IMG/VR virus record: IMGVR_UViG_3300046522_000750
Length of the DNA stretch: 55,224 nt
Source: a virus
Lineage: Duplodnaviria; Heunggongvirae; Uroviricota; Caudoviricetes
Direction: 5' to 3' (one strand)
The position numbers and the translations under genes were made by a program. Shown here piece by piece: positions 22,105 to 42,428 of this stretch. Positions within the stretch are counted from its first letter, which is position 1. Every line of letters begins with the position of its first letter. Below the pieces are notes generated by a model. The model made no database searches and was not told the origin of the DNA. It saw nothing but the letters and a program-made list of their open reading frames with translations.

Positions 22105-23700
22105 CTACAGGCCCAACGCGTCCGAAAGCATCGCTCCTTTCATCAGATTGATCTCCCTGGGGCTGAAGAAGGATTCAACCCCCAGGTCTTTGACAATCTG
22201 CAGGTGATGCTCAACCGCCATGATCGCCCGCAATGTTTTCCTGAATTCACCACGATTGAAACGCTCTGAGAGCCCAAGGGGCCACGCCGTTGGCCGATCT
22301 TTGTTCACATGGCTCAAGTAAATGAACGAGGCTTCGCTCAGGGTGGCCGGCGCATACGGACTCAGTGCTTTGGTGTAGTTGTTCAGGCGTACAATGATCG
22401 ACGTAAGAGGCTCAGTCGACTCCAGCACCTCACGTGCGGCTTTGAGATCTGCTGCATACGCAGGCACCACAGAAGATTGAGCTGCACCCTCCTCCAGAGC
22501 CAATACCAGTTGCCAAAGCACCCCGCGAAAAGGATTTAGGTTGTGCAACTCGGCTTGGCTGTAAAAGCTCTCGACACCCAGGATCTGAATGATGTCGGTG
22601 TGAGGCTTGAACGGTGAAGAGCTACGATGGCGCTTACGAAATGCCAGTCGATCAAGCACCGTATCTAGTTTCAGTCCCTTGAAGACCTCCGGCTCGCCAG
22701 ACACCGTGCCAAGTACCATGTAGCCCTCAAGGTCAATGTTGGTTTCGGCGCAAGGCATCAGCGCTTTCACCATCGTTGAACAGCCCTTGGCGTGCCGGCC
22801 ACGAGCCGGCTGTTTTTCCAATAGCTTTCGCAGCTTGCTCAGCGTTCTGTTCTTGAGTGTATGGACTTGCTCCTCACTGATTTTGTCCTCAAATCGCAAG
22901 CGAACAATCATCTCCTCGAGCATTTCATGCATGTTCAGAAAGTGACCAAGATTGGCGTGATCAAGATCGCCCACCAGCGATTTGCAGAACTGGTGACCAT
23001 CAATGCCCTTTTCCAGCAACGCAGGTACGCCACCATGGCGCTCAACCATCGCAAGCTTGCCCTCGTCTATCCGGTAATGATGGAACTCGCGACCCATTTT
23101 GGGCAGTTGATTCACCAGGCTTACGCCGCGTTTGGCCTCTTCAATCAGCTTGAGCTCTGCTTCAAGTTCAGCCAGGCGCTCACCGCCTTCGAATGCGATG
23201 CAGCCGATTTTGTCGCGAATACTGTGCGTGGTAATCCAGTGATCTGGGGCTGGCTTTTGCGTGGACAGGTAAAACACCGCCGCTAACAGGTTTTGGTTCT
23301 TAACTTCACTCCACGCCACGTACAGCCAAACCCGGTCATGCCCCTTGAGGTTCGCGTTGACCCAACCAAAGGTTTGCTCCAGGAGGTGCAGAAGATCCAG
23401 GGTGCCAATGTCCTCAGCCTGAAGCTGTAAAATCTTGCTCGACATCAGTTTTTCGTAAAGCTCATGAATGTTCGACGCGGGGCCACTGCCATGCGAATGA
23501 ACACTCAAGGCGATGGCACGGCTCATGGCGGTCAGCCTGTACCTGTCTTCTACATCCAGCACTTCAAAACACTTGTCGATCACTGTCTTGTAGGGCTGGA
23601 AGGCAGCCTGTGGATCATCGAAGCCGGAAGTAGCACCTACGCGCACGAGACAGTTCCTCTGTAAAGCGATTCTGGATTGACTATTTGTCAATTTATACAT
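22105..23700 (-). CDS. large hypothetical protein
   Basis: 531-aa ORF ending LSDALGL; true start probably a little downstream of 23700. Confidence 0.8.
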   Translation of the reverse strand: MYKLTNSQSRIALQRNCLVRVGATSGFDDPQAAFQPYKTVIDKCFEVLDVEDRYRLTAMSRAIALSVHSHGSGPASNIHELYEKLMSSKILQLQAEDIGTLDLLHLLEQTFGWVNANLKGHDRVWLYVAWSEVKNQNLLAAVFYLSTQKPAPDHWITTHSIRDKIGCIAFEGGERLAELEAELKLIEEAKRGVSLVNQLPKMGREFHHYRIDEGKLAMVERHGGVPALLEKGIDGHQFCKSLVGDLDHANLGHFLNMHEMLEEMIVRLRFEDKISEEQVHTLKNRTLSKLRKLLEKQPARGRHAKGCSTMVKALMPCAETNIDLEGYMVLGTVSGEPEVFKGLKLDTVLDRLAFRKRHRSSSPFKPHTDIIQILGVESFYSQAELHNLNPFRGVLWQLVLALEEGAAQSSVVPAYAADLKAAREVLESTEPLTSIIVRLNNYTKALSPYAPATLSEASFIYLSHVNKDRPTAWPLGLSERFNRGEFRKTLRAIMAVEHHLQIVKDLGVESFFSPREINLMKGAMLSDALGL

Positions 23701-33716: not shown

Positions 33717-33749
33717 AAAAAGCACCTGGTTTGAGCCAAGTGCTTTTTT
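33717..33749. terminator. terminator of cassette A
   Basis: AAAAAGCAC.TGG-tttgag-CCA.GTGCTTTTT. Confidence 0.8.
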
Positions 33750-33762
33750 AATGGCTTGCGAA

Positions 33763-35082
33763 TCAGTGGCCAGGCCCGTGCGCAAAGTCATGATCAAATT
33801 GAGGCTTGAAACCCCTGAATCCTCGATCATTCTTTTCTTGAGGCTTAGGCATCACTTCTGGCAGTTGATCAACCAGGTCAACGGCTTCATTCATCCGCAC
33901 AACCATCATGTCTTTAACCAGTGTCAGCATGGCCTTCAGGTTTTTTGTCGCGCCGTGATTTTCGATGTCGTTTTGTGCTAATTTGGCTACATCACCATAC
34001 AAACCGTCAAAAATGTCTTTGCTGGACGTAACTGGATGTGCAACAACAGCTTCTTTTAGAACTCTAGAAAACTCGTCGTAGTTGTCGGCGATGAACGCAC
34101 TCATCAATGCGTCACGGATAAACTTGTATCTGTTATAAAGAGAGGTACTTGTGTCGCCTGCAATCATTTCAGACGTGTATGCCTTAAGTGCCTCTCTGAA
34201 TGAATTCTGCATTTGTGTCTGTACAGCAGTAACTTCCGTCCCTTCCGGGAGAAAAAACAAAGCCCTCAAATCTGACGACTGACCGATGTTATGCGCATCA
34301 CTGGCTATGAACAGCTGTGGGAGTAATTTTTTAAATGTATCTAGGCGACCTTCCTTGTACACATCAGAAATAGCACAGTGTCTGATGATCCATGGATTTG
34401 GAGCAAATCCACTGTCCAACTTGGCCGAAAAATAATCTGAGGCATAAAAACCTTTCGGGGCGTATTTAAGCATCTGATCAATTTCAGTCTCAGGAACGGC
34501 ATCAAAAAATTGCTCAAATGATTCCTGGCTAAACTTGAATCCACCATTAAACAAGAACGGCGAATGAAACTTTTCATTAAATGCATTATACCCGTACAGC
34601 GTTTCTCCTAGCTTCGCCTTCTCAATGACAAACCGAACATCATCACTCTGGGCAACGCCTGCTGTAAGTGCATGATGAAGAGAATTCCATATGCTGAAAT
34701 CTTTTGGATCAAGCATGTGTGGCGCAAGGTCTCCTCCGATGCCAAATCGGGCGACGAAATCATCGTACTCCAAGGTAGCGCCGACCATCAGCATCGCCAG
34801 TGCTTTAGACGCATTGGTGATCGACGGTGTGGCGTAGATCGCCTGAAGGATGATCGCCCCACGTTCACTCTCGATTTTGCATTGGCGATGATTAGCGGCG
34901 ATTTCAGCCAGTAGCTTTGTGTAAGCATCACCTTCTTCTGGCTTATGCTTGTAAACCGAGGGGTCTTTCGCCTGCAGGTAAAGCTGTACGAAATCATCAG
35001 CTCTCAGCTGTTCCAGTGCAGTAAGAACCGAAACAAGAAACTTTTTGTTGCCGTACGAAGCTTCAACGTAACTGCTGTTCAT
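33763..35082 (-). CDS. five-paralog array member A
   Basis: ASYGNKKF..SVL.AL..LRADDF..L, GATLEYDDF, QSDDVRF. Confidence 0.9.
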   Translation of the reverse strand: MNSSYVEASYGNKKFLVSVLTALEQLRADDFVQLYLQAKDPSVYKHKPEEGDAYTKLLAEIAANHRQCKIESERGAIILQAIYATPSITNASKALAMLMVGATLEYDDFVARFGIGGDLAPHMLDPKDFSIWNSLHHALTAGVAQSDDVRFVIEKAKLGETLYGYNAFNEKFHSPFLFNGGFKFSQESFEQFFDAVPETEIDQMLKYAPKGFYASDYFSAKLDSGFAPNPWIIRHCAISDVYKEGRLDTFKKLLPQLFIASDAHNIGQSSDLRALFFLPEGTEVTAVQTQMQNSFREALKAYTSEMIAGDTSTSLYNRYKFIRDALMSAFIADNYDEFSRVLKEAVVAHPVTSSKDIFDGLYGDVAKLAQNDIENHGATKNLKAMLTLVKDMMVVRMNEAVDLVDQLPEVMPKPQEKNDRGFRGFKPQFDHDFAHGPGH

Positions 35083-35084
35083 CA

Positions 35085-35111
35085 AAAATCCCTCTGGTTT
35101 CGTACATTATG
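35085..35111 (-). promoter_or_regulatory. repeated -10/RBS leader of cassette A
   Basis: minus strand CATAATgtacgaaaccAGAGGGATttt; 26/27 identical to 38000-38026. Confidence 0.75.
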
Positions 35112-35172
35112 GTGTTTGAGCTGAAGGTGCTGCAATCCGGCCATGGCGCTCAGCCCGCCACTGGTAGCCAAG

Positions 35173-35205
35173 AAAAAAGCACCCGGCGTGATCCAGGTGC
35201 TTTTT
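35173..35205. terminator. terminator of cassette B
   Basis: AAAAAAGCACC.GG-cgtgat-CC.GGTGCTTTTT. Confidence 0.8.
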
Positions 35206-35221
35206 CTGAAACCCCGATTAA

Positions 35222-36544
35222 TCAGAGGCTCAATTCGTCCGATCCAGCCATTCGAGCTTTTTCAATAAAACCCTTGACCCTGTCATCGCGCTTGTTTCGC
35301 TTGTGCTCCTCATACGTAACCTCAGGCATCTGGCACGCCATGTCGACTGCGTCATTCATCCTCGAAACGACAGTGTCTTTTAGAAGCACCAGCATGGATT
35401 TCATATTGGCGGTCGCGCCCTCCTGACGCATTTCCCTTATAAGATAACCGGCAAGGTGAGAATAAAGCTCATCGAACGGATCTCTTCCATCAGTAACCGG
35501 GGTAGCATCCGTCGCTTCCTTCAAAACACTTGAGAAGTGATCGAGATCATTGGCTTTGAAGCTGTTTCTCAGCGTGTCTTTGACGAAAGCAAAGGCGATG
35601 CCAGGCTTCGTTTTGCTAACCTCATTGATAACGGACGAAGCGTAATTATCAAAGGCTTCTTTATAAATCGATTTTATCTCGATTTGTTCCGCCGTGATAT
35701 CCGACTCTTGTTCTCCTGACAAAATCTTAGTGAGCGCTGGCGAACGCACTATGTTGTGATAGTCTGCGTGTTCGATAAACTTAGACAGTAATGACCTGAA
35801 CACTTCCACGCGACCAGACCTGTAAAGCTCAGGGAGAACTTCATAAAGAGTATCAGCATCAGGAATTATATTACTTTCTACAAGTCCGATAAAATAATCA
35901 GTCTCAAAAAAACCTTTGGGAGCAAATGATAGCAGATCAACTTTATGCTCATCTAAAGATGAATCAAGAAATTGAGAGAAGCCTTCATTGGTGAACTTGA
36001 AACCACCGCTATAAAGTTGTGGAATATATACTCCACCAGCTCTTTCATTATTTTTGAATATCTCTTTTGAGATACCCGCTTTGTCAATTAGGAATCGCAC
36101 ATCATCACTGTGAACAAGGCCTGCACGATAGGCTCGGTAAATATTAGTAGACTCTTTGATTTCGTGTTTTTCAAACGCCTTTGGTTCCAGATCGCCACCC
36201 TTCCCGAACCGACTTACAAAATCCTCGTAATCCAGAGTGGCGCCCATCATCAGCATTGCCACGGCTTTCGTTGGATTTGAGATTGACGGGGCAGCATACA
36301 TCGCCTGGATGATGATTTCGGCGTGATCATTACTAAGGTGAATCACGTTCTCATGATACGCGATCTCACCCAGGAGTTTGGTGTGAGGATCGCCATCATC
36401 TTGCGTGAGTTTATAAACCGCAGGGTCTTGCGCCTTAAGGTAGAGCTGGACGAAATCGTCGGCCTTCAATTTGTTTAGTGCAGTGAGCACGGACATGATA
36501 AATTTCTTGTTTCCGCGTGACGCTTCCACGTGATAGCTGAGCAT
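35222..36544 (-). CDS. five-paralog array member B
   Basis: ASRGNKKF, KADDF, GATLDYEDF, HSDDVRF; start MLSYHV after AGAGGG. Confidence 0.9.
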   Translation of the reverse strand: MLSYHVEASRGNKKFIMSVLTALNKLKADDFVQLYLKAQDPAVYKLTQDDGDPHTKLLGEIAYHENVIHLSNDHAEIIIQAMYAAPSISNPTKAVAMLMMGATLDYEDFVSRFGKGGDLEPKAFEKHEIKESTNIYRAYRAGLVHSDDVRFLIDKAGISKEIFKNNERAGGVYIPQLYSGGFKFTNEGFSQFLDSSLDEHKVDLLSFAPKGFFETDYFIGLVESNIIPDADTLYEVLPELYRSGRVEVFRSLLSKFIEHADYHNIVRSPALTKILSGEQESDITAEQIEIKSIYKEAFDNYASSVINEVSKTKPGIAFAFVKDTLRNSFKANDLDHFSSVLKEATDATPVTDGRDPFDELYSHLAGYLIREMRQEGATANMKSMLVLLKDTVVSRMNDAVDMACQMPEVTYEEHKRNKRDDRVKGFIEKARMAGSDELSL

Positions 36545-36622
36545 AATAATCCCTCTGATTTTAGACATTATCCGTGTTGATCATCAATCGACACAACGAC
36601 CTTGAGTTTGATAAATGCAAAG

Positions 36623-36651
36623 AAAAAGCACCGGGTTTTGGCCAGGTGCTT
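36623..36651. terminator. terminator of cassette C
   Basis: AAAAAGCACC.GG-ttttgg-CC.GGTGCTT. Confidence 0.75.
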
Positions 36652-36671
36652 GTGACTCAGGTCGCAGTTGA

Positions 36672-37997
36672 TCAGTGGCGAGGGCCGTGTGATAGTTCGC
36701 GGTGATATTGGGGGCCACTACCCTGAAACTTCCGATCTTCCTTTTCTAGGCTTTCAGGCGTCAAGGCAGGAAGCTGATTCACCAGGTCAATCGATGCATT
36801 CATCCTTTCAACCACTGCGTCTTTCACCAAGTTGAGCATGGACTTTAAGTTTTCGCTCGCGCCACGGTGAGCAATTTCGCGGCGTGCGAAGCGGATGACG
36901 TTAAGGTACAGTGCCTCAAGCATGTCCTGCCCATCTTTAACTGGATTGGCATCAACTGCCTCCTTGAGCACTCGGGAAAAATCGTCATAGCCATCGACGA
37001 TCAGCGCATTGAGCAAGAAATCCCTGATGAATCCGTAACGGGTTTCCTCCAGCATGTTTGTTGGAGACTGCTCACCCTTGATGATCGATGACATGTAGCC
37101 ATTGAAAGCTAATCTGAAAGAAGCTTGCATTTGTGCTTGATCTTCGGTCAGTTCCTTACCGGCCTGCCCAAAAAACAAGTTCATCGCGCCAGCCGAGAGC
37201 AGCGTGTCGTACGCACCATTGCTGGTGAACAAGTGGGGAAGCAATGTTTCGAAGGCATCGACACGACCCGCTTTGAAAAGTGCGGTTATGTGCTCAAGCT
37301 CAACATTCGGCACGAACCCATTGGCTACGATGCCTGCGAAGTAGTCTGAGCTAAGGAAGCCTTGCGGAGCTGCACCAACAAGTTTTGCCTTGTATTCATC
37401 CTCGACGGACTCAAAAAACTGGACAAATGAATCCTGAGTGAAATTGAACTGCTTCGCAGCCAGAAACAACGGCATAGTGTCGCGAGATTGAGCTGCATTG
37501 ATATCCCTAAACAGGGTCTTACTCATGTTTACCTTGTCGATCAGGAATCTGACATCATCACTCTGACTCAGGTTAGCTTTAAAGGCATGATAAATAACAT
37601 TGAACTGACTGAAGGATTTTGGATCTAGTGGCTGTGCTTCCAGATCACCGCCACTGCCGAATCGACTGACGAAATCGTCATACTCAAGCGTTGCCCCGAC
37701 CATGAGCATGACCAAGGCCTTGGTCGAGTTGGCAATCGAAGGTGCCGAATAGACCGCCTGGAGAATGATCGCTCCTCGCTCCTTTTCGATTTGGAAAAGC
37801 CTGGCGTTGTCGGAAATCTCAGCCAAAAGAGCGGTGTGAACATCGCCTACTTCTGGCTTATGCTTGTAGATTGATGGGTTTTGCGCTTGCAGGTAGAGCT
37901 GAACGAAATCATCGGCTCGAAGTTCTTCAAGTGCCGACAGCACTGAGACGATAAATTTTTTGTTGCCGTATGAAGCGTTAACGTAGGTGCTATCCAT
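36672..37997 (-). CDS. five-paralog array member C
   Basis: ASYGNKKF, RADDF, GATLEYDDF, QSDDVRF. Confidence 0.9.
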   Translation of the reverse strand: MDSTYVNASYGNKKFIVSVLSALEELRADDFVQLYLQAQNPSIYKHKPEVGDVHTALLAEISDNARLFQIEKERGAIILQAVYSAPSIANSTKALVMLMVGATLEYDDFVSRFGSGGDLEAQPLDPKSFSQFNVIYHAFKANLSQSDDVRFLIDKVNMSKTLFRDINAAQSRDTMPLFLAAKQFNFTQDSFVQFFESVEDEYKAKLVGAAPQGFLSSDYFAGIVANGFVPNVELEHITALFKAGRVDAFETLLPHLFTSNGAYDTLLSAGAMNLFFGQAGKELTEDQAQMQASFRLAFNGYMSSIIKGEQSPTNMLEETRYGFIRDFLLNALIVDGYDDFSRVLKEAVDANPVKDGQDMLEALYLNVIRFARREIAHRGASENLKSMLNLVKDAVVERMNASIDLVNQLPALTPESLEKEDRKFQGSGPQYHRELSHGPRH

Positions 37998-37999
37998 CG

Positions 38000-38026
38000 A
38001 AAATCCCTCTGGTTTCGTCCATTATG
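38000..38026 (-). promoter_or_regulatory. repeated -10/RBS leader of cassette C
   Basis: minus strand CATAATggacgaaaccAGAGGGATttt. Confidence 0.75.
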
Positions 38027-38141
38027 CTGGTTGAGACGATTGGGCAACAACCGTCGCAGGCCAAGAAAAAGGAGCCCCTACTGTGTAGAAACTCCCTCAG
38101 TTATCACCAGTCGCTTGATCTGGCCGCTGATCTGTCAGACA

Positions 38142-39404
38142 TCAAGACCTTGGGCCGAAATCCACTTCCCTCCTCACTGGATGGCGACCATGTCTTTCTG
38201 GCTTAGAATCCTTGGCACCTACCTTGACTGTGTCAGCAAGGCCGCTCATCCACTCGAACACCTTCTCTTTAAGAAGCGAAACCATTTTCACATGGTCTTC
38301 AGTGATGTCGATTCGTTGCTCACCATCCACAATCTCCATGAAGACGCCCATAACATTGCCTCTTCTACCTAAATCATCATTCACGGCCAGAAGAATATTA
38401 GTGAAATGATCCAAATGTCCAAGGTTATAAGCCCTTAATAAATAGCCTGGAACATTCGAGTTAAACATGACTGGATGCGTCTTGGCGATGTCGAGTTCAT
38501 GAGCATTGATCTGCTTGATCAGCTCATTTTTGATCAATACCTGGCGATCAGTGAGGTTCCCCATATTAATTCGAAGCAATAAATCATTTAATTGATCATG
38601 GCCGCGCCCACTAGAGCCATCGCCAAGGATCTGATCAGCTGCTTTCGTAACAAGGACGCCGTTCTCTGCGTTGAACGCCCTGGTCAAAATCGGCGTCATG
38701 TCGCCGCAAGATCTTATGTAGCCACGGTCAAACAGATCCAGCACTCTTTCCGAAGCGAACACGCTGGCTGGGGCATAATGCATTAACGAAGGTCTTTTAT
38801 GCTCTGGAAGCGCATCCAGCAACTGAAAAAACGGATCTGCATCTAAGTTAGATGCAAATAAGTTAATATGCGGAAGCGACAGGAACTTTTCAATAGAGTC
38901 AGTGCTGAATGCTTTTTCAATAATTTTGAATTTATCAATTAAAAAGCGAACATCATCACTCTGCATCAGGCCAACGGTGAATGCATACCGAGCGCATTCA
39001 ATCTCTTCCTGAATCTTATAAGTTCGATTCTTTTTTGAGGATAATGAAAAATCACCACCTTTGCCAAAGAGAGGGGCGAAATCTTTATATTCGAGGGTGG
39101 CGCCCACTGATAAAGTTGCCATCAATTTGCTCAACTCTGAAATCGAAGGTGCTGCACAGAGGGCCTGAAGAATGAGCTCACCATGGTCTCTTTCAAGACC
39201 CATGCCTGACAAATTGTGAATAATTTCAATAAAAAGCCGGGTTTGTGGGTCTTTTTCGCCTTTCGAAATTTTGTAGATGGACTGATCTTCAGCCTTCAGG
39301 AATAGGTTGATGAATTCGTCTGCCCTCAACTCGAACAGTGCAGCCATGACCGAGTGTATGTAATCCTTGTTGCCGAATGAAGCCCGAATGTTGTAGTTGA
39401 TCAT
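38142..39404 (-). CDS. five-paralog array member D
   Basis: ASFGNKDY, RADEF, GATLEYKDF, QSDDVRF. Confidence 0.9.
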   Translation of the reverse strand: MINYNIRASFGNKDYIHSVMAALFELRADEFINLFLKAEDQSIYKISKGEKDPQTRLFIEIIHNLSGMGLERDHGELILQALCAAPSISELSKLMATLSVGATLEYKDFAPLFGKGGDFSLSSKKNRTYKIQEEIECARYAFTVGLMQSDDVRFLIDKFKIIEKAFSTDSIEKFLSLPHINLFASNLDADPFFQLLDALPEHKRPSLMHYAPASVFASERVLDLFDRGYIRSCGDMTPILTRAFNAENGVLVTKAADQILGDGSSGRGHDQLNDLLLRINMGNLTDRQVLIKNELIKQINAHELDIAKTHPVMFNSNVPGYLLRAYNLGHLDHFTNILLAVNDDLGRRGNVMGVFMEIVDGEQRIDITEDHVKMVSLLKEKVFEWMSGLADTVKVGAKDSKPERHGRHPVRREVDFGPRS

Positions 39405-39517
39405 GCACTTATCCCTGTTAGTTTTTTCCAAATTTAGCTTTGGAAGGCAATCATATTCAAGAAAGACCGGCCACTGCGTGAATAGCCGATCCTTCGATCA
39501 AAGACTTCTACTCCGGA

Positions 39518-40756
39518 TCAGAATCTGTTCCCTGGGTATTCATCAAACCAGCTTCGCTCTCTCGAATCCCTTTTCTGAGGAGGGGTAGGCTGAGAATGTT
39601 CGATTAGATTGTTCATCTGCTCGGTAACACTGTCCCTCAACAAAGACAACATTTGTTTGCGATCATCCGTAATGACCAAACCACGTAAAATCTTGTCATT
39701 GATATCCATGAACACCGGCATGAAAGCATGGCGAGCTTCTTCGGTTTTTCTAGCAGCGGTTATTAACTTTGAAAATTGATCAAGATCACCAGACTCAAAT
39801 GCCCGAGTCAGGTTTAGCATGGCGGAATCACCAAACAGAACTGGATTACGTTCAGCGGTCGCCACGTCATTATCATTCATTACCTCAATGAAGGCTTTTT
39901 TAATCGAGAGTTCACCCTCACTCAGTTGAAGTGTCATATAACAATCGAAAAATTCCTTCAATTCTTCACGGCCACGATTATCCCTACTCTTCTCAAGCAC
40001 TTTTTTTGTTAGTTTTATAAATGCATCGACATCACCACCCCTAAAGAAGCCTAACAAAGTCATCTCGATATCTGATGATGATGGAACGAATCCGTTATCC
40101 ACCAAGTCAGTGAGGAAATTAGGCTGAACAAGTCCCTCTTGAACATTGTACATAACCATTGGCCTACACTGTTCACTTGACGCTTCATAAAACTCAGTAA
40201 ATGAACTTTGGGTGAAGTTAAAATTCCTCAATGCACAGACAAATGATTCAACATGATGACGTGAATAAACAGTTTCAATTGACTCCATCTTGTCAATTAA
40301 ATATCGAACATCATCGCTCTGATTGATCCCAGCACTGAACGCACTGCGAGCATCATCTAACTCTTCAAAAAAATCAGATGACGTATTACGACGAGGGTAA
40401 AGTTCCCCACCGTCGCAAAACCTGGTTTTGAAGTCATCATATTCAAGTGTTGATCCAATCAAGAGCATCGCCAACAACTTGTTGGTATTTGATACTTCGG
40501 GTGTGGCATACAGCGCCTGCAGAATGATTTCGCCATGTTCTTTCCCGATAGGGAATAGGTGGCAGTTAGAAACAATTTCTCTAAACAAACGTGTGTGAGC
40601 ATCTTTATCAGACTTGGTTATCTGATAAACCTCTGGCTTATCAGCCTGCTGGAACAAATTGATAAATTCATCAGCTTTAAGCTGCTCCAGCGCTTGCATG
40701 ATTGATACGACGAACTTCTTGTTGCGGTGCGTGGCGTTAATGTCGTTGGGTTGCAT
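39518..40756 (-). CDS. five-paralog array member E
   Basis: ATHRNKKF, KADEF, GSTLEYDDF, QSDDVRY; leader CATAAT...GAGGGAT. Confidence 0.9.
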   Translation of the reverse strand: MQPNDINATHRNKKFVVSIMQALEQLKADEFINLFQQADKPEVYQITKSDKDAHTRLFREIVSNCHLFPIGKEHGEIILQALYATPEVSNTNKLLAMLLIGSTLEYDDFKTRFCDGGELYPRRNTSSDFFEELDDARSAFSAGINQSDDVRYLIDKMESIETVYSRHHVESFVCALRNFNFTQSSFTEFYEASSEQCRPMVMYNVQEGLVQPNFLTDLVDNGFVPSSSDIEMTLLGFFRGGDVDAFIKLTKKVLEKSRDNRGREELKEFFDCYMTLQLSEGELSIKKAFIEVMNDNDVATAERNPVLFGDSAMLNLTRAFESGDLDQFSKLITAARKTEEARHAFMPVFMDINDKILRGLVITDDRKQMLSLLRDSVTEQMNNLIEHSQPTPPQKRDSRERSWFDEYPGNRF

Positions 40757-40850
40757 GCCTGATCCCTCAAGGTTTTTTACATTATGGCGCTGGAGTTGCC
40801 GGGTATTCAAGAAATGTACAAAGCCCGGAATAACGACGGGCCTTGGCTGG

Positions 40851-41384: not shown

Positions 41385-41828
41385 TCAACCCGAGGCTTTT
41401 TCTAACACCATCGGATCGAGAATGTACTTACCGTCAGGCCGGCGCAGCCTGATCCCCGAATCTCCGCGCTCAACCGTCCATGTCTCCTGGGCAGGTGGCT
41501 GCCCTTGCGGAAAATACTTAACGCTCACTGAGGTCGTATCGGGCCTGATCACCAAGCAACCGCCTTTATCCAGTTCATCTGACCCGGAGGTCTGCACCGT
41601 GAATTGGCCACGCGGCTGATCTTTAAGACAGTCGTCGAAACCCTGGATGCGCGTAGCCTTACCATCCAACACCACGTAACTGTTTGGCCGAAACACAATT
41701 GGAATGCCAAACGAGTAAACCTTTGCCACATCTATAGCGATGTCTGTGATGGTTTGTTTTACCTGGTCACAACCGGACAGCAAGACCAGCGCCATCCCCA
41801 GGGTGATCGGTTTCAACCAACGGCTCAT
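41385..41828 (-). CDS. lipoprotein, paralog 1
   Basis: lipobox LSGC; RIQGFDDCLK...GCLVIRPD...ETWTVER...LRRPDG. Confidence 0.85.
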   Translation of the reverse strand: MSRWLKPITLGMALVLLSGCDQVKQTITDIAIDVAKVYSFGIPIVFRPNSYVVLDGKATRIQGFDDCLKDQPRGQFTVQTSGSDELDKGGCLVIRPDTTSVSVKYFPQGQPPAQETWTVERGDSGIRLRRPDGKYILDPMVLEKASG

Positions 41829-42259
41829 AACACGGCCTTCGCATCCAGAATGTATTCACCGTTTGGTCGACGTAAGGCAATGACGTGCTTACGCGGGCGC
41901 TCAACCGTCCATGTCTCTGGAATTGGGCGTCCCTCAGGGAAGTACATCACCTCTACCGAGGCGGTATCTGGCTTGATCACGATGCACCCATCGTCAGGGC
42001 CGTTGTCGGGCCCGAAGAGCATTTCCATCACGATACCGCGTTGTTCCTTCAGGCAATCGTCGAAACCTTGGATGCGTGTGCGCTTGCCATCCATCAGCAC
42101 GTAACTGTCAGGCAGGAACTCAATAGGGATGCTGGGAAGGTCGGCATTCTTGATTACGGCCTCACCAATGTCGGTAAGGGTCTGCTTGGCGTTGTCACAG
42201 CCGGACAACAACACAGCCATGGCCAACGGCGCCAGCAGAGCGACTTTGATTTGTTTCAT
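41825..42259 (-). CDS. lipoprotein, paralog 2
   Basis: lipobox LSGC; RIQGFDDCLK...GCIVIKPD...ETWTVER...LRRPNG. Confidence 0.85.
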   Translation of the reverse strand: MKQIKVALLAPLAMAVLLSGCDNAKQTLTDIGEAVIKNADLPSIPIEFLPDSYVLMDGKRTRIQGFDDCLKEQRGIVMEMLFGPDNGPDDGCIVIKPDTASVEVMYFPEGRPIPETWTVERPRKHVIALRRPNGEYILDAKAVL

Positions 42260-42373
42260 GGGGTCGAATGCTCTTCCTAGAAATTTTGCGTAAATTGACA
42301 CCGAACAGGCCGGCGCGTAAAGTGATTTGTGTTGGCCGCAAGGCAAGAATCAGACTCTCGCCGCAAGGCAATT

Positions 42374-42399
42374 AAAAGCCCGTTAATCGCGGGCTTTTT
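42374..42399. terminator. intrinsic terminator
   Basis: AAAAGCCCG-ttaatcg-CGGGCTTTTT. Confidence 0.8.
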
Positions 42400-42428
42400 C
42401 ATGCCTGTCGAAAAAAAATCCCTGTGAA

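Follow-up and report, generated by a model that had tools for sequence, protein, structure and literature searches.

A tandem array of five predicted alpha-solenoid paralogs with conserved C-terminal tails on a probable Pseudomonas-type megaplasmid

The stretch of DNA considered here (IMG/VR record IMGVR_UViG_3300046522_000750; "the window" is the whole 55 kb that were analysed) belongs to a contig of 1,131,278 bp and carries a tandem array of five paralogous genes, A to E. The array consists of co-oriented open reading frames (ORFs) on the minus strand, occupying 33763-40756, or 33763-40810 with the leader of E. The ATG starts were set from a conserved leader, 4-6 nt past the ribosome site, and lie at 35082 (A), 36544 (B), 37997 (C), 39404 (D) and 40756 (E), giving proteins of 439, 440, 441, 420 and 412 aa. 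An earlier inspection made without database searches (the sequence-only reading) had listed five tandem ORFs of 412-441 aa, and the sizes agree; it had also called the genes AT-rich, and their GC content (42-49%) is lower than that of the window (~51-52%), but only modestly so. The intergenic spacers measure 86-144 bp and contain a terminator and a promoter only, with no small gene. Syntenic arrays at three other loci (L001, L006 and L007) contain orthologs. The features are as follows.

33717..33748, minus strand: terminator-like hairpin and U-tract after A; 13-bp stem AAAAAGCACTTGG..CCAGGTGCTTTTT, then GTTTTG; fold -18.8 kcal/mol, z -3.2.
33763..35082, minus strand: paralog A, 439 aa, A/C subfamily, tail ...HDFAHGPGH; 97% identical ortholog in L006, absent from L007.
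35083..35135, minus strand: putative promoter and leader of A, TTGCAG-N8-GCTCA-N5-CATAAT-N10-AGAGGGAT-N5-ATG; same layout before the L001 and L007 orthologs.
35160..35205 (approximate), minus strand: terminator-like hairpin and U-tract after B; 14-bp stem GAAAAAGCACCTGG..CCGGGTGCTTTTTT; fold -27.2 kcal/mol, z -2.7.
35222..36544, minus strand: paralog B, 440 aa, B subfamily, tail ...VKGFIEKARMAGSDELSL; from ORF, tree and tail comparison.
36545..36596, minus strand: putative promoter and leader of B, TTGTGT-N8-GATCA-N5-GATAAT-N10-AGAGGGAT-N4-ATG; kept in L007_3.
36672..37997, minus strand: paralog C, 441 aa, A/C subfamily, tail ...RELSHGPRH; the modelled copy, from its ORF; predicted local distance difference test score (pLDDT) 82.5, predicted template modelling score (pTM) 0.72.
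37998..38050, minus strand: putative promoter and leader of C, TTGTTG-N8-TCTCA-N5-CATAAT-N10-AGAGGGAT-N5-ATG; from the leader pattern.
38142..39404, minus strand: paralog D, 420 aa, D subfamily, tail ...REVDFGPRS; from ORF and tree, absent from L007.
39405..39462 (approximate), minus strand: putative promoter and leader of D, TTGAAT-N18-TAAATT-N14-AGGGAT-N6-ATG; from the leader pattern.
39518..40756, minus strand: paralog E, 412 aa, E subfamily, tail ...SWFDEYPGNRF; the fastest-diverging copy between plasmids.
40757..40810, minus strand: putative promoter and leader of E, TTGAAT-N8-ACTCC-N5-CATAAT-N10-TGAGGGAT-N5-ATG; kept in L007_1.

The same order of signals precedes all five genes: TTGnnn, 18 nt, (C/G)ATAAT (TAAATT in D), then 10-14 nt, (G)AGGGAT, 4-6 nt and the ATG. 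The related leaders that had been described, including the deviating box of D, are thus borne out at every gene. A strict pattern, TTG-N21-NATAAT, occurs six times on the two strands of the window, and four of these occurrences precede array genes. The fuller leader TTGnnn-N8-(G)CTCA-N5-CATAAT-N10-AGAGGGAT-N4-5-ATG is kept before orthologs on plasmids with only 68-91% DNA identity, and the promoter layout TTGnnn-N8-GCTCA-N5-(-10) is seen at A and at the L001 orthologs. Such retention across diverged plasmids is a phylogenetic footprint, so that these signals are probably functional; the array-type leader is missing before distant single-copy relatives. Each of the genes is followed by a hairpin and a U-tract. 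Those of A, B and C share AAAAAGCACC..GGTGCTTTTT, whereas the stems of D and E (14-15 bp) are unrelated to this sequence; the -35 box of D overlaps the U-tract of E's terminator. Three related terminators had been noted previously, which is correct for A, B and C but incomplete, as D and E are terminated too. The proposal that a promoter-gene-terminator unit was duplicated agrees with a leader and a terminator at all five genes. The repeated unit is promoter-leader-gene-terminator, complete in all five copies, and the genes are probably transcribed independently (monocistronic) and similarly controlled.

The 5' leader itself, G(G/T)A(C/A)GAAA(C/T)CAGAGGGAT, recurs at 35083-35120, 36545-36580 and 37998-38035 (minus strand) and at the L001 and L007 orthologs. 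Its conservation (CAGAGGGAT, GAAACCAGAGGGAT) far exceeds the needs of a ribosome site. An A-N-GGA core lies inside it and could, speculatively, be a candidate site for a translational regulator, e.g., of the Rsm/Csr type.

The five proteins align end to end with 28-53% identity, and the N-terminal motifs quoted in the sequence-only reading (GNKKF, LRADDF, IILQA, GATLEYDDF..RFG.GGDL, and QSDDVRFLIDK) are all present in the family alignments. Mean pairwise identity is 0.48 over residues 1-160 and 0.23 over the remainder, with a sharp drop near residue 160; this N-terminal contrast has a circular-shift p of 0.006 and was reached by none of 10,000 column shuffles. The claimed domain-level contrast between a conserved N-terminal module and a faster-evolving remainder is therefore real, and uniform divergence is excluded. 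The description of a conserved N-terminus followed by strong divergence holds for the break near residue 160, but the alignment extends over the full length and a second conserved block follows at ~322-411. The least conserved part is the middle third (residues 161-320), which evolves two to four times faster and with insertions and deletions. Rather than a separate variable C-terminal half, as had been supposed, the variable part is the middle of what is modelled as one continuous solenoid, and the C-terminus holds a conserved helical hairpin.

Synonymous sites are saturated in all paralog pairs and in all three regions (proportion of synonymous differences 0.67-0.94), so that the duplications must be old. 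Gene conversion was considered as the cause of the constant N-terminus and ruled out, because the N-terminal synonymous sites are saturated too. Among orthologs, the ratio of nonsynonymous to synonymous substitution rates (omega, or dN/dS) is 0.09-0.16 for the N-module and 0.13-0.62 for the middle, most values of the C-terminal part lie at 0.09-0.45, and whole genes have 0.1-0.3; at the level of regions, none with enough substitutions shows omega above 1. Selection is purifying throughout and constraint is graded, the lowest omega being found in the N-module. The dN/dS survey along the alignment, which had been put forward as a check, thus detected no diversifying selection in any region, and the idea of a hypervariable, polymorphic family gives way to ancient paralogs with saturated synonymous sites, omega below 1 and four stable subfamilies with orthologs.

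These subfamilies correspond to four clades of a maximum-likelihood tree (ultrafast bootstrap at least 95, Shimodaira-Hasegawa-like approximate likelihood ratio test at least 80), grouped as (E + D) and (B + A/C) and each including orthologs on different plasmids (loci L001, L006, and L007). The five genes accordingly look like ancient, non-redundant paralogs in four subfamilies of an orphan family. The array of L006 has five copies with 97-100% identity, that of L007 has three and lacks A and D, and that of L001, located on a contig of 1.11 Mb, has three; an IS200/IS605 element (Y1 transposase and a TnpB/Cas12f-like OrfB) at positions 5009-6772 of L001 lies immediately upstream of this last array. 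Between the window and L007, the flanks and copies C and B are ~91% identical in DNA, whereas E is only 77% identical; the protein E and its counterpart L007_1 share 63% identity, with an omega of 0.59 in the middle region. This unequal divergence of copies and flanks means that the copies evolve at different rates or were exchanged. Differences from the closest relative, L006 (run X2), cluster in A and B, with synonymous divergence (dS) of 0.05-0.08, while C, D and E have dS below 0.01 (compared stretches 35241-35804 and 36600-40800, respectively), which suggests a recombination boundary inside the array.

The family is rare. A word-indexed search of 5.8 billion protein clusters returned 15 proteins, and an exhaustive profile search of 1.84 billion representatives returned 25 at E < 1e-3, ten of them below 1e-30; all of these relatives are unnamed and come from metagenomes or Logan assemblies. 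The sequence is present in four rhizosphere metagenome runs, whose contigs show no joints and no copy-number variants. Neither the array, nor copy C, nor the distant member P0025 matched PLSDB plasmids, phage records or E. coli genomes (DNA and protein), and at the sensitivity tried the family is absent from PLSDB. No confirmed relative emerged from a scan of 185,579 species genomes. Two Pseudomonas plasmids (1.17 and 0.91 Mb) encode relatives (42% and 37%) of the 650-aa protein that neighbors the array; searching pPL1, a related plasmid of Pseudomonas silesiensis (1.17 Mb), with the family profile gave nothing, an outcome that shows little. A comparative paper on pMPPla107 mentions neither the family nor secretion terms, for the words looked for. 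When all ORFs of 100 aa or more from the window and nine loci were scanned with a hidden Markov model (HMM), no further members came to light. The family appears to be confined to giant, ~1.1 Mb Pseudomonas-type rhizosphere megaplasmids, with 3-5 copies on each.

Two distant members have other surroundings. P0025 (558 aa) lies inside a flagellar gene region (L009, 1-21677), an odd context, together with FliD, FliS, FliT, FlhDC, MotAB, FlhB, FlhA, and FlhF and with interspersed unknown genes and a phage-type gene. P0022 (L008, 1-21452) lies amid runs of similar-sized unknown genes (444, 469, 483, and 439 aa; 428, 406, and 405 aa; 423, 384, and 424 aa). No relation of these neighbors to P0022 is detectable by HMM, and the runs have the appearance of additional orphan paralog arrays, carried by another large element.

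Pfam, NCBIfam and PHROGs offer no credible family for the array proteins, and neither Pfam nor NCBIfam lists a TPR, HEAT, ARM or Sel1 family for them. Two members give a weak DMP19-like Pfam match (12.7 bits against a cutoff of 25). PADLOC gave a single match, Cas11f for copy E (E 0.002), which was taken as chance. The earlier statement that no known family could be recognized is therefore upheld by all four resources, and no housekeeping family was matched either. An AlphaFold2 model of copy C, built on an alignment of 18 sequences, is all helix (23 helices, no strands; pLDDT 82.5, pTM 0.72) and comprises about eight helical hairpins, five long helices and a disordered tail (residues 421-441, pLDDT below 50); the N-module modelled alone reaches a pLDDT of 91. 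In the model the hairpins repeat every ~35 residues and are antiparallel and stacked into an elongated scaffold. The protein is thus predicted to be an alpha-solenoid, in which stacked antiparallel helical hairpins form a superhelix.

Fold searches (PDB with Foldseek, VIA-align wide, BFVD, AFDB and the ESM Atlas) return generic solenoids, with template modelling scores (TM) up to 0.45 and Z up to 9.3, none outstanding. The top neighbors are designed ARM and PPR proteins, the TSC2 N-terminus, importin-alpha, TPR proteins and plant PPR proteins, and among solved structures nothing corresponds to the N-terminal 160-aa module (Foldseek E at least 0.27, Z at most 5.6). The structural comparison recommended earlier therefore yields no named family, and it does not divide the protein into halves, as the conserved and variable parts form one continuous solenoid. 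All five proteins are acidic (isoelectric point, pI, 4.96-5.98; net charge -8 to -19, negative in each third) and are probably cytoplasmic. Among 29 superfamily members, the invariant or nearly invariant residues of the N-domain are all hydrophobic (F31, L34, F113), so that a structural or binding role is more plausible for this module than an enzymatic one.

Copy C is also predicted to pair with itself. The two-copy prediction scores 0.60 (median of three runs) against 0.01 for the best control; the runs share at least 51% of contacts, and the partner has a pLDDT of at least 76. In a calibration set, 20 of 30 proteins known as pairs from solved structures and 1 of 23 known as single chains attain this mark, counts that hold only roughly here because the dimer run used its own alignment. 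The two chains meet symmetrically through the last two long helices (residues 356-412), which are the second conserved block. A symmetric homodimer through the C-terminal hairpin is thus supported, though not demonstrated, by the model.

Every member, including those with ~20% identity, ends in a disordered Arg/Lys-rich stretch followed by a terminal motif within the last 3-10 residues, which combines acidic and hydrophobic residues with Gly/Glu-Pro ([DE]-hydrophobic-[GE]-P). Examples are VDFGPRS, DDIGPRM, SHGPRH, SHEPGH, DGFEPSR, and FDEYPGNRF, and the type of tail follows the clades of the tree. All members of the B clade instead terminate in DE[LIFM][GS][LF] (SDELSL, LDELGL, SDEFGL, RDEIGLG, also DELGF), and P0008 ends in ...DELGL. 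A protein of 531 aa encoded elsewhere in the window (22105-23700, minus strand), which is unrelated and without a Pfam or PHROGs match, ends in ...LMKGAMLSDALGL (KGAMLSDALGL). Compared with the ending ...[DE]-x-L-G-L, in which KG often stands ~9 residues upstream, the tail of B (VKGFIEKARMAGSDELSL) has S for G and a longer KG spacing.

From this material a protein of four parts can be drawn: an N-module (1-160), a solenoid (161-320), long helices (~330-412), and a tail made of the last 20-40 residues. As it has no catalytic signature, it is read as a binding adaptor that works as a dimer. All paralogs would dock through the conserved N-module onto a single partner encoded by the plasmid, clients would differ between subfamilies by virtue of the diverged central groove, and the C-terminal tail would act as an address label. 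The proteins may then be handed to, or work with, a tag-reading plasmid machine, a link that is favored because the clade B tail can be seen as a variant of the ...DxLGL ending. The most plausible reader would be the type IV secretion system (T4SS) of the plasmid, with the proteins as translocated substrates or substrate adaptors. We tentatively prefer this reading, a family of dimeric adaptors or substrates of a tag-reading plasmid machine with a T4SS as leading candidate, although it draws on resemblance and we would not wager on it at even odds. The anatomy is well supported; mechanism and function are what we infer.

Several observations weigh against the preferred reading. The common partner, the clients and the tag reader are all hypothetical, and no T4SS gene lies within the window, so that the link to such a system is one of resemblance. 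Four of the five tails are not of the LGL type (A, C, D, and E end in HGPGH, HGPRH, FGPRS, and YPGNRF). A solenoid fold is functionally uninformative, and both fold and dimer are predictions from a shallow alignment of 18 sequences. Interface positions are no better conserved among the paralogs than their neighbors, so that heterodimers cannot be inferred, and the omega values indicate no arms-race interface.

The main rival keeps the proteins inside the cell, as scaffolds or regulators of plasmid housekeeping whose tail (in B with its LGL-like ending) would serve as a degron, or as the peptide on which a protease or chaperone docks to adjust their abundance. The extreme C-terminus is the usual place of protease recognition tags, and the array tails are disordered, exposed at just this position and clade-specific in their terminal residues. 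The proteins are also acidic, cytoplasmic, and, in the model, dimeric; purifying selection and stable orthology suit a housekeeping-like role, and no secretion gene is found within the window. However, the array has no linked gene for a protease or adaptor, and an Arg-rich stretch plus a terminal motif kept at ~20% identity is more elaborate than typical degrons. On balance this explanation is unlikely, but it deserves to be taken seriously.

A bolder form of the secretion reading is that the family's tail peptide (Arg-rich, then [DE]-hydrophobic-[GE]-P or ...DELGL) and the ...DxLGL ending are one new export or recognition code, and that the paralogs are dimeric solenoid effectors or adaptors aimed at different targets in recipient or neighboring bacteria. 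To our knowledge, [DE]-hydrophobic-[GE]-P is not a described secretion signal. We consider this version quite improbable; if true, it would amount to an "effector repertoire" of a bacterial plasmid that is aimed at other bacteria and carries a signal not described before.

It is slightly harder to credit that these are conflict proteins, such as anti-defense decoys, antidote binders like CidA of Wolbachia or standalone defense sensors, whose diversification tracks host or phage targets. A multi-copy, diverged helical-repeat family on a mobile element would fit this description, as would the variation from three to five copies between plasmids with 91% identical flanks and the divergence of E far beyond these flanks. 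Acidic proteins can act as mimics, and an ESM feature search ranks a CidA cluster second with a score of 0.80. Yet that score is at noise level by the search's own calibration, the fold lists shown contain no CidA or defense protein, PADLOC gives no credible match, and omega exceeds 1 in no region. Nor is there an adjacent gene for a toxin, nuclease, NTPase or other effector, each gene being monocistronic.

Still more doubtful is a role as PPR-like, sequence-specific RNA binders that regulate plasmid or host transcripts, with the variable central repeats setting RNA specificity. The idea derives from a comparison of the family profile with designed PPR proteins (E 6e-12), achieved through residues 217-272, which resemble the consensus G..P[DN]...aGrvd.a..ll; the nearest ESM Atlas shapes of the whole model and of the N-domain are plant PPR proteins (TM 0.37-0.45), and designed PPR chains appear in the Foldseek lists (E 0.012-0.023, TM ~0.2). 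However, the E of 6e-12 is inflated, as one 56-residue segment is counted repeatedly, aligning to each of nine identical designed repeats with ~8 bits (per-stretch E 7-22). No Pfam PPR model (PF01535, PF13041, PF12854, PF13812) matches any of the 18 members at E up to 10 or any of the five copies at E up to 1, and TM stays below 0.5. All five whole proteins are acidic rather than basic (pI 5.0-6.0, net charge -8 to -19), which is unlike known PPR RNA binders. With an inflated profile E, no Pfam match and acidic proteins, we read the resemblance as PPR-like hairpin geometry and not as membership of the PPR family. Finally, that the array is decaying duplicated DNA without function, for which the rarity of the family might speak, is scarcely credible. 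Selection contradicts it, as whole-gene omega stays at 0.1-0.3 although synonymous divergence is saturated; moreover, none of the copies is disrupted, diverged plasmids keep the promoter, ribosome site, and terminator, and four subfamilies have persisted.

Two further features lie upstream of the array. At 41385-41828 and 41825-42346 (minus strand), directly upstream, lies a pair of small paralogs that adjoin and overlap each other and carry a signal of the lipoprotein type (..LLSGCD..); they share ~68% DNA identity and are syntenic with the array in L006, L007, and L001. Between these lipoprotein genes and the 650-aa gene, a 42-bp intergenic segment (42365-42406) matches separate contigs with unrelated flanks in four of four metagenome runs; it looks like a short dispersed repeat, possibly REP-like (repetitive extragenic palindromic).

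The million-base megaplasmids of soil pseudomonads consist mostly of genes without known function, often in paralog arrays. One such family now has a defined anatomy, with a conserved, putative docking module, a fast-evolving, putative binding region, a predicted dimerization hairpin, a terminal peptide, and a footprinted promoter and leader. If the tails are an address code, they would be compact reporters with which to find the reading machine, and they would help to explain the coding investment of giant plasmids; if they are not, what remains is a well-characterized orphan solenoid family of narrow distribution.

Among known systems, a close analogy for the preferred adaptor or substrate reading is with T4SS substrates. 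Dot/Icm effectors of Legionella and Coxiella have disordered C-terminal signals, and the signals of the Agrobacterium VirB/D4 system are Arg-rich. The array proteins share with such substrates a disordered charged tail, conserved terminal residues and helical repeats, and the paralog expansion on a conjugative-type element is a further likeness. They differ in that the window has no T4SS component and in their likely target, which would be another bacterium and not a eukaryotic cell; translocation is putative here. Inside the window, the clade B tails (SDELSL, DELGL, DEIGLG) resemble the ending of the tagged 531-aa protein (KG..LSDALGL), to which there is otherwise no sequence relation.

Polymorphic toxin and effector-immunity systems, by contrast, combine a conserved delivery region with swapped toxin domains and adjacent immunity genes, whereas the C-terminal parts of the array proteins are mutually homologous and show no swaps, no toxin domain was found in them, and no small gene lies between the copies. 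Similarly, the array genes differ from Wolbachia CidA in having no large CidB-like partner gene beside them. Integron gene cassettes are promoterless ORFs with an attC site beside an integrase; the units of the array have their own promoter-like box and U-tract terminator, and no integrase occurs among the Pfam-scanned ORFs of the window (most of those of at least 150 aa).

Only one database structure, the unnamed 504-aa AlphaFold DB cluster A0A3M5I557, has the N-module in a matching position (over residues 2-168, TM 0.63 and E 1.8e-3; the next row has TM 0.39). It aligns over nearly the full length (E 7.8e-6) at 16% identity and is 60 residues longer. With the alpha-solenoid class as a whole (TPR, PPR, HEAT, and ARM) the array proteins share the predicted hairpin stack, and one segment of 56 residues resembles the PPR consensus; they are set apart by matching no Pfam repeat HMM, by their acidity, by the predicted C-terminal dimerization hairpin and by the conserved terminal peptide. 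The family is thus a new and narrowly distributed one within the broad class of alpha-solenoid binding proteins.

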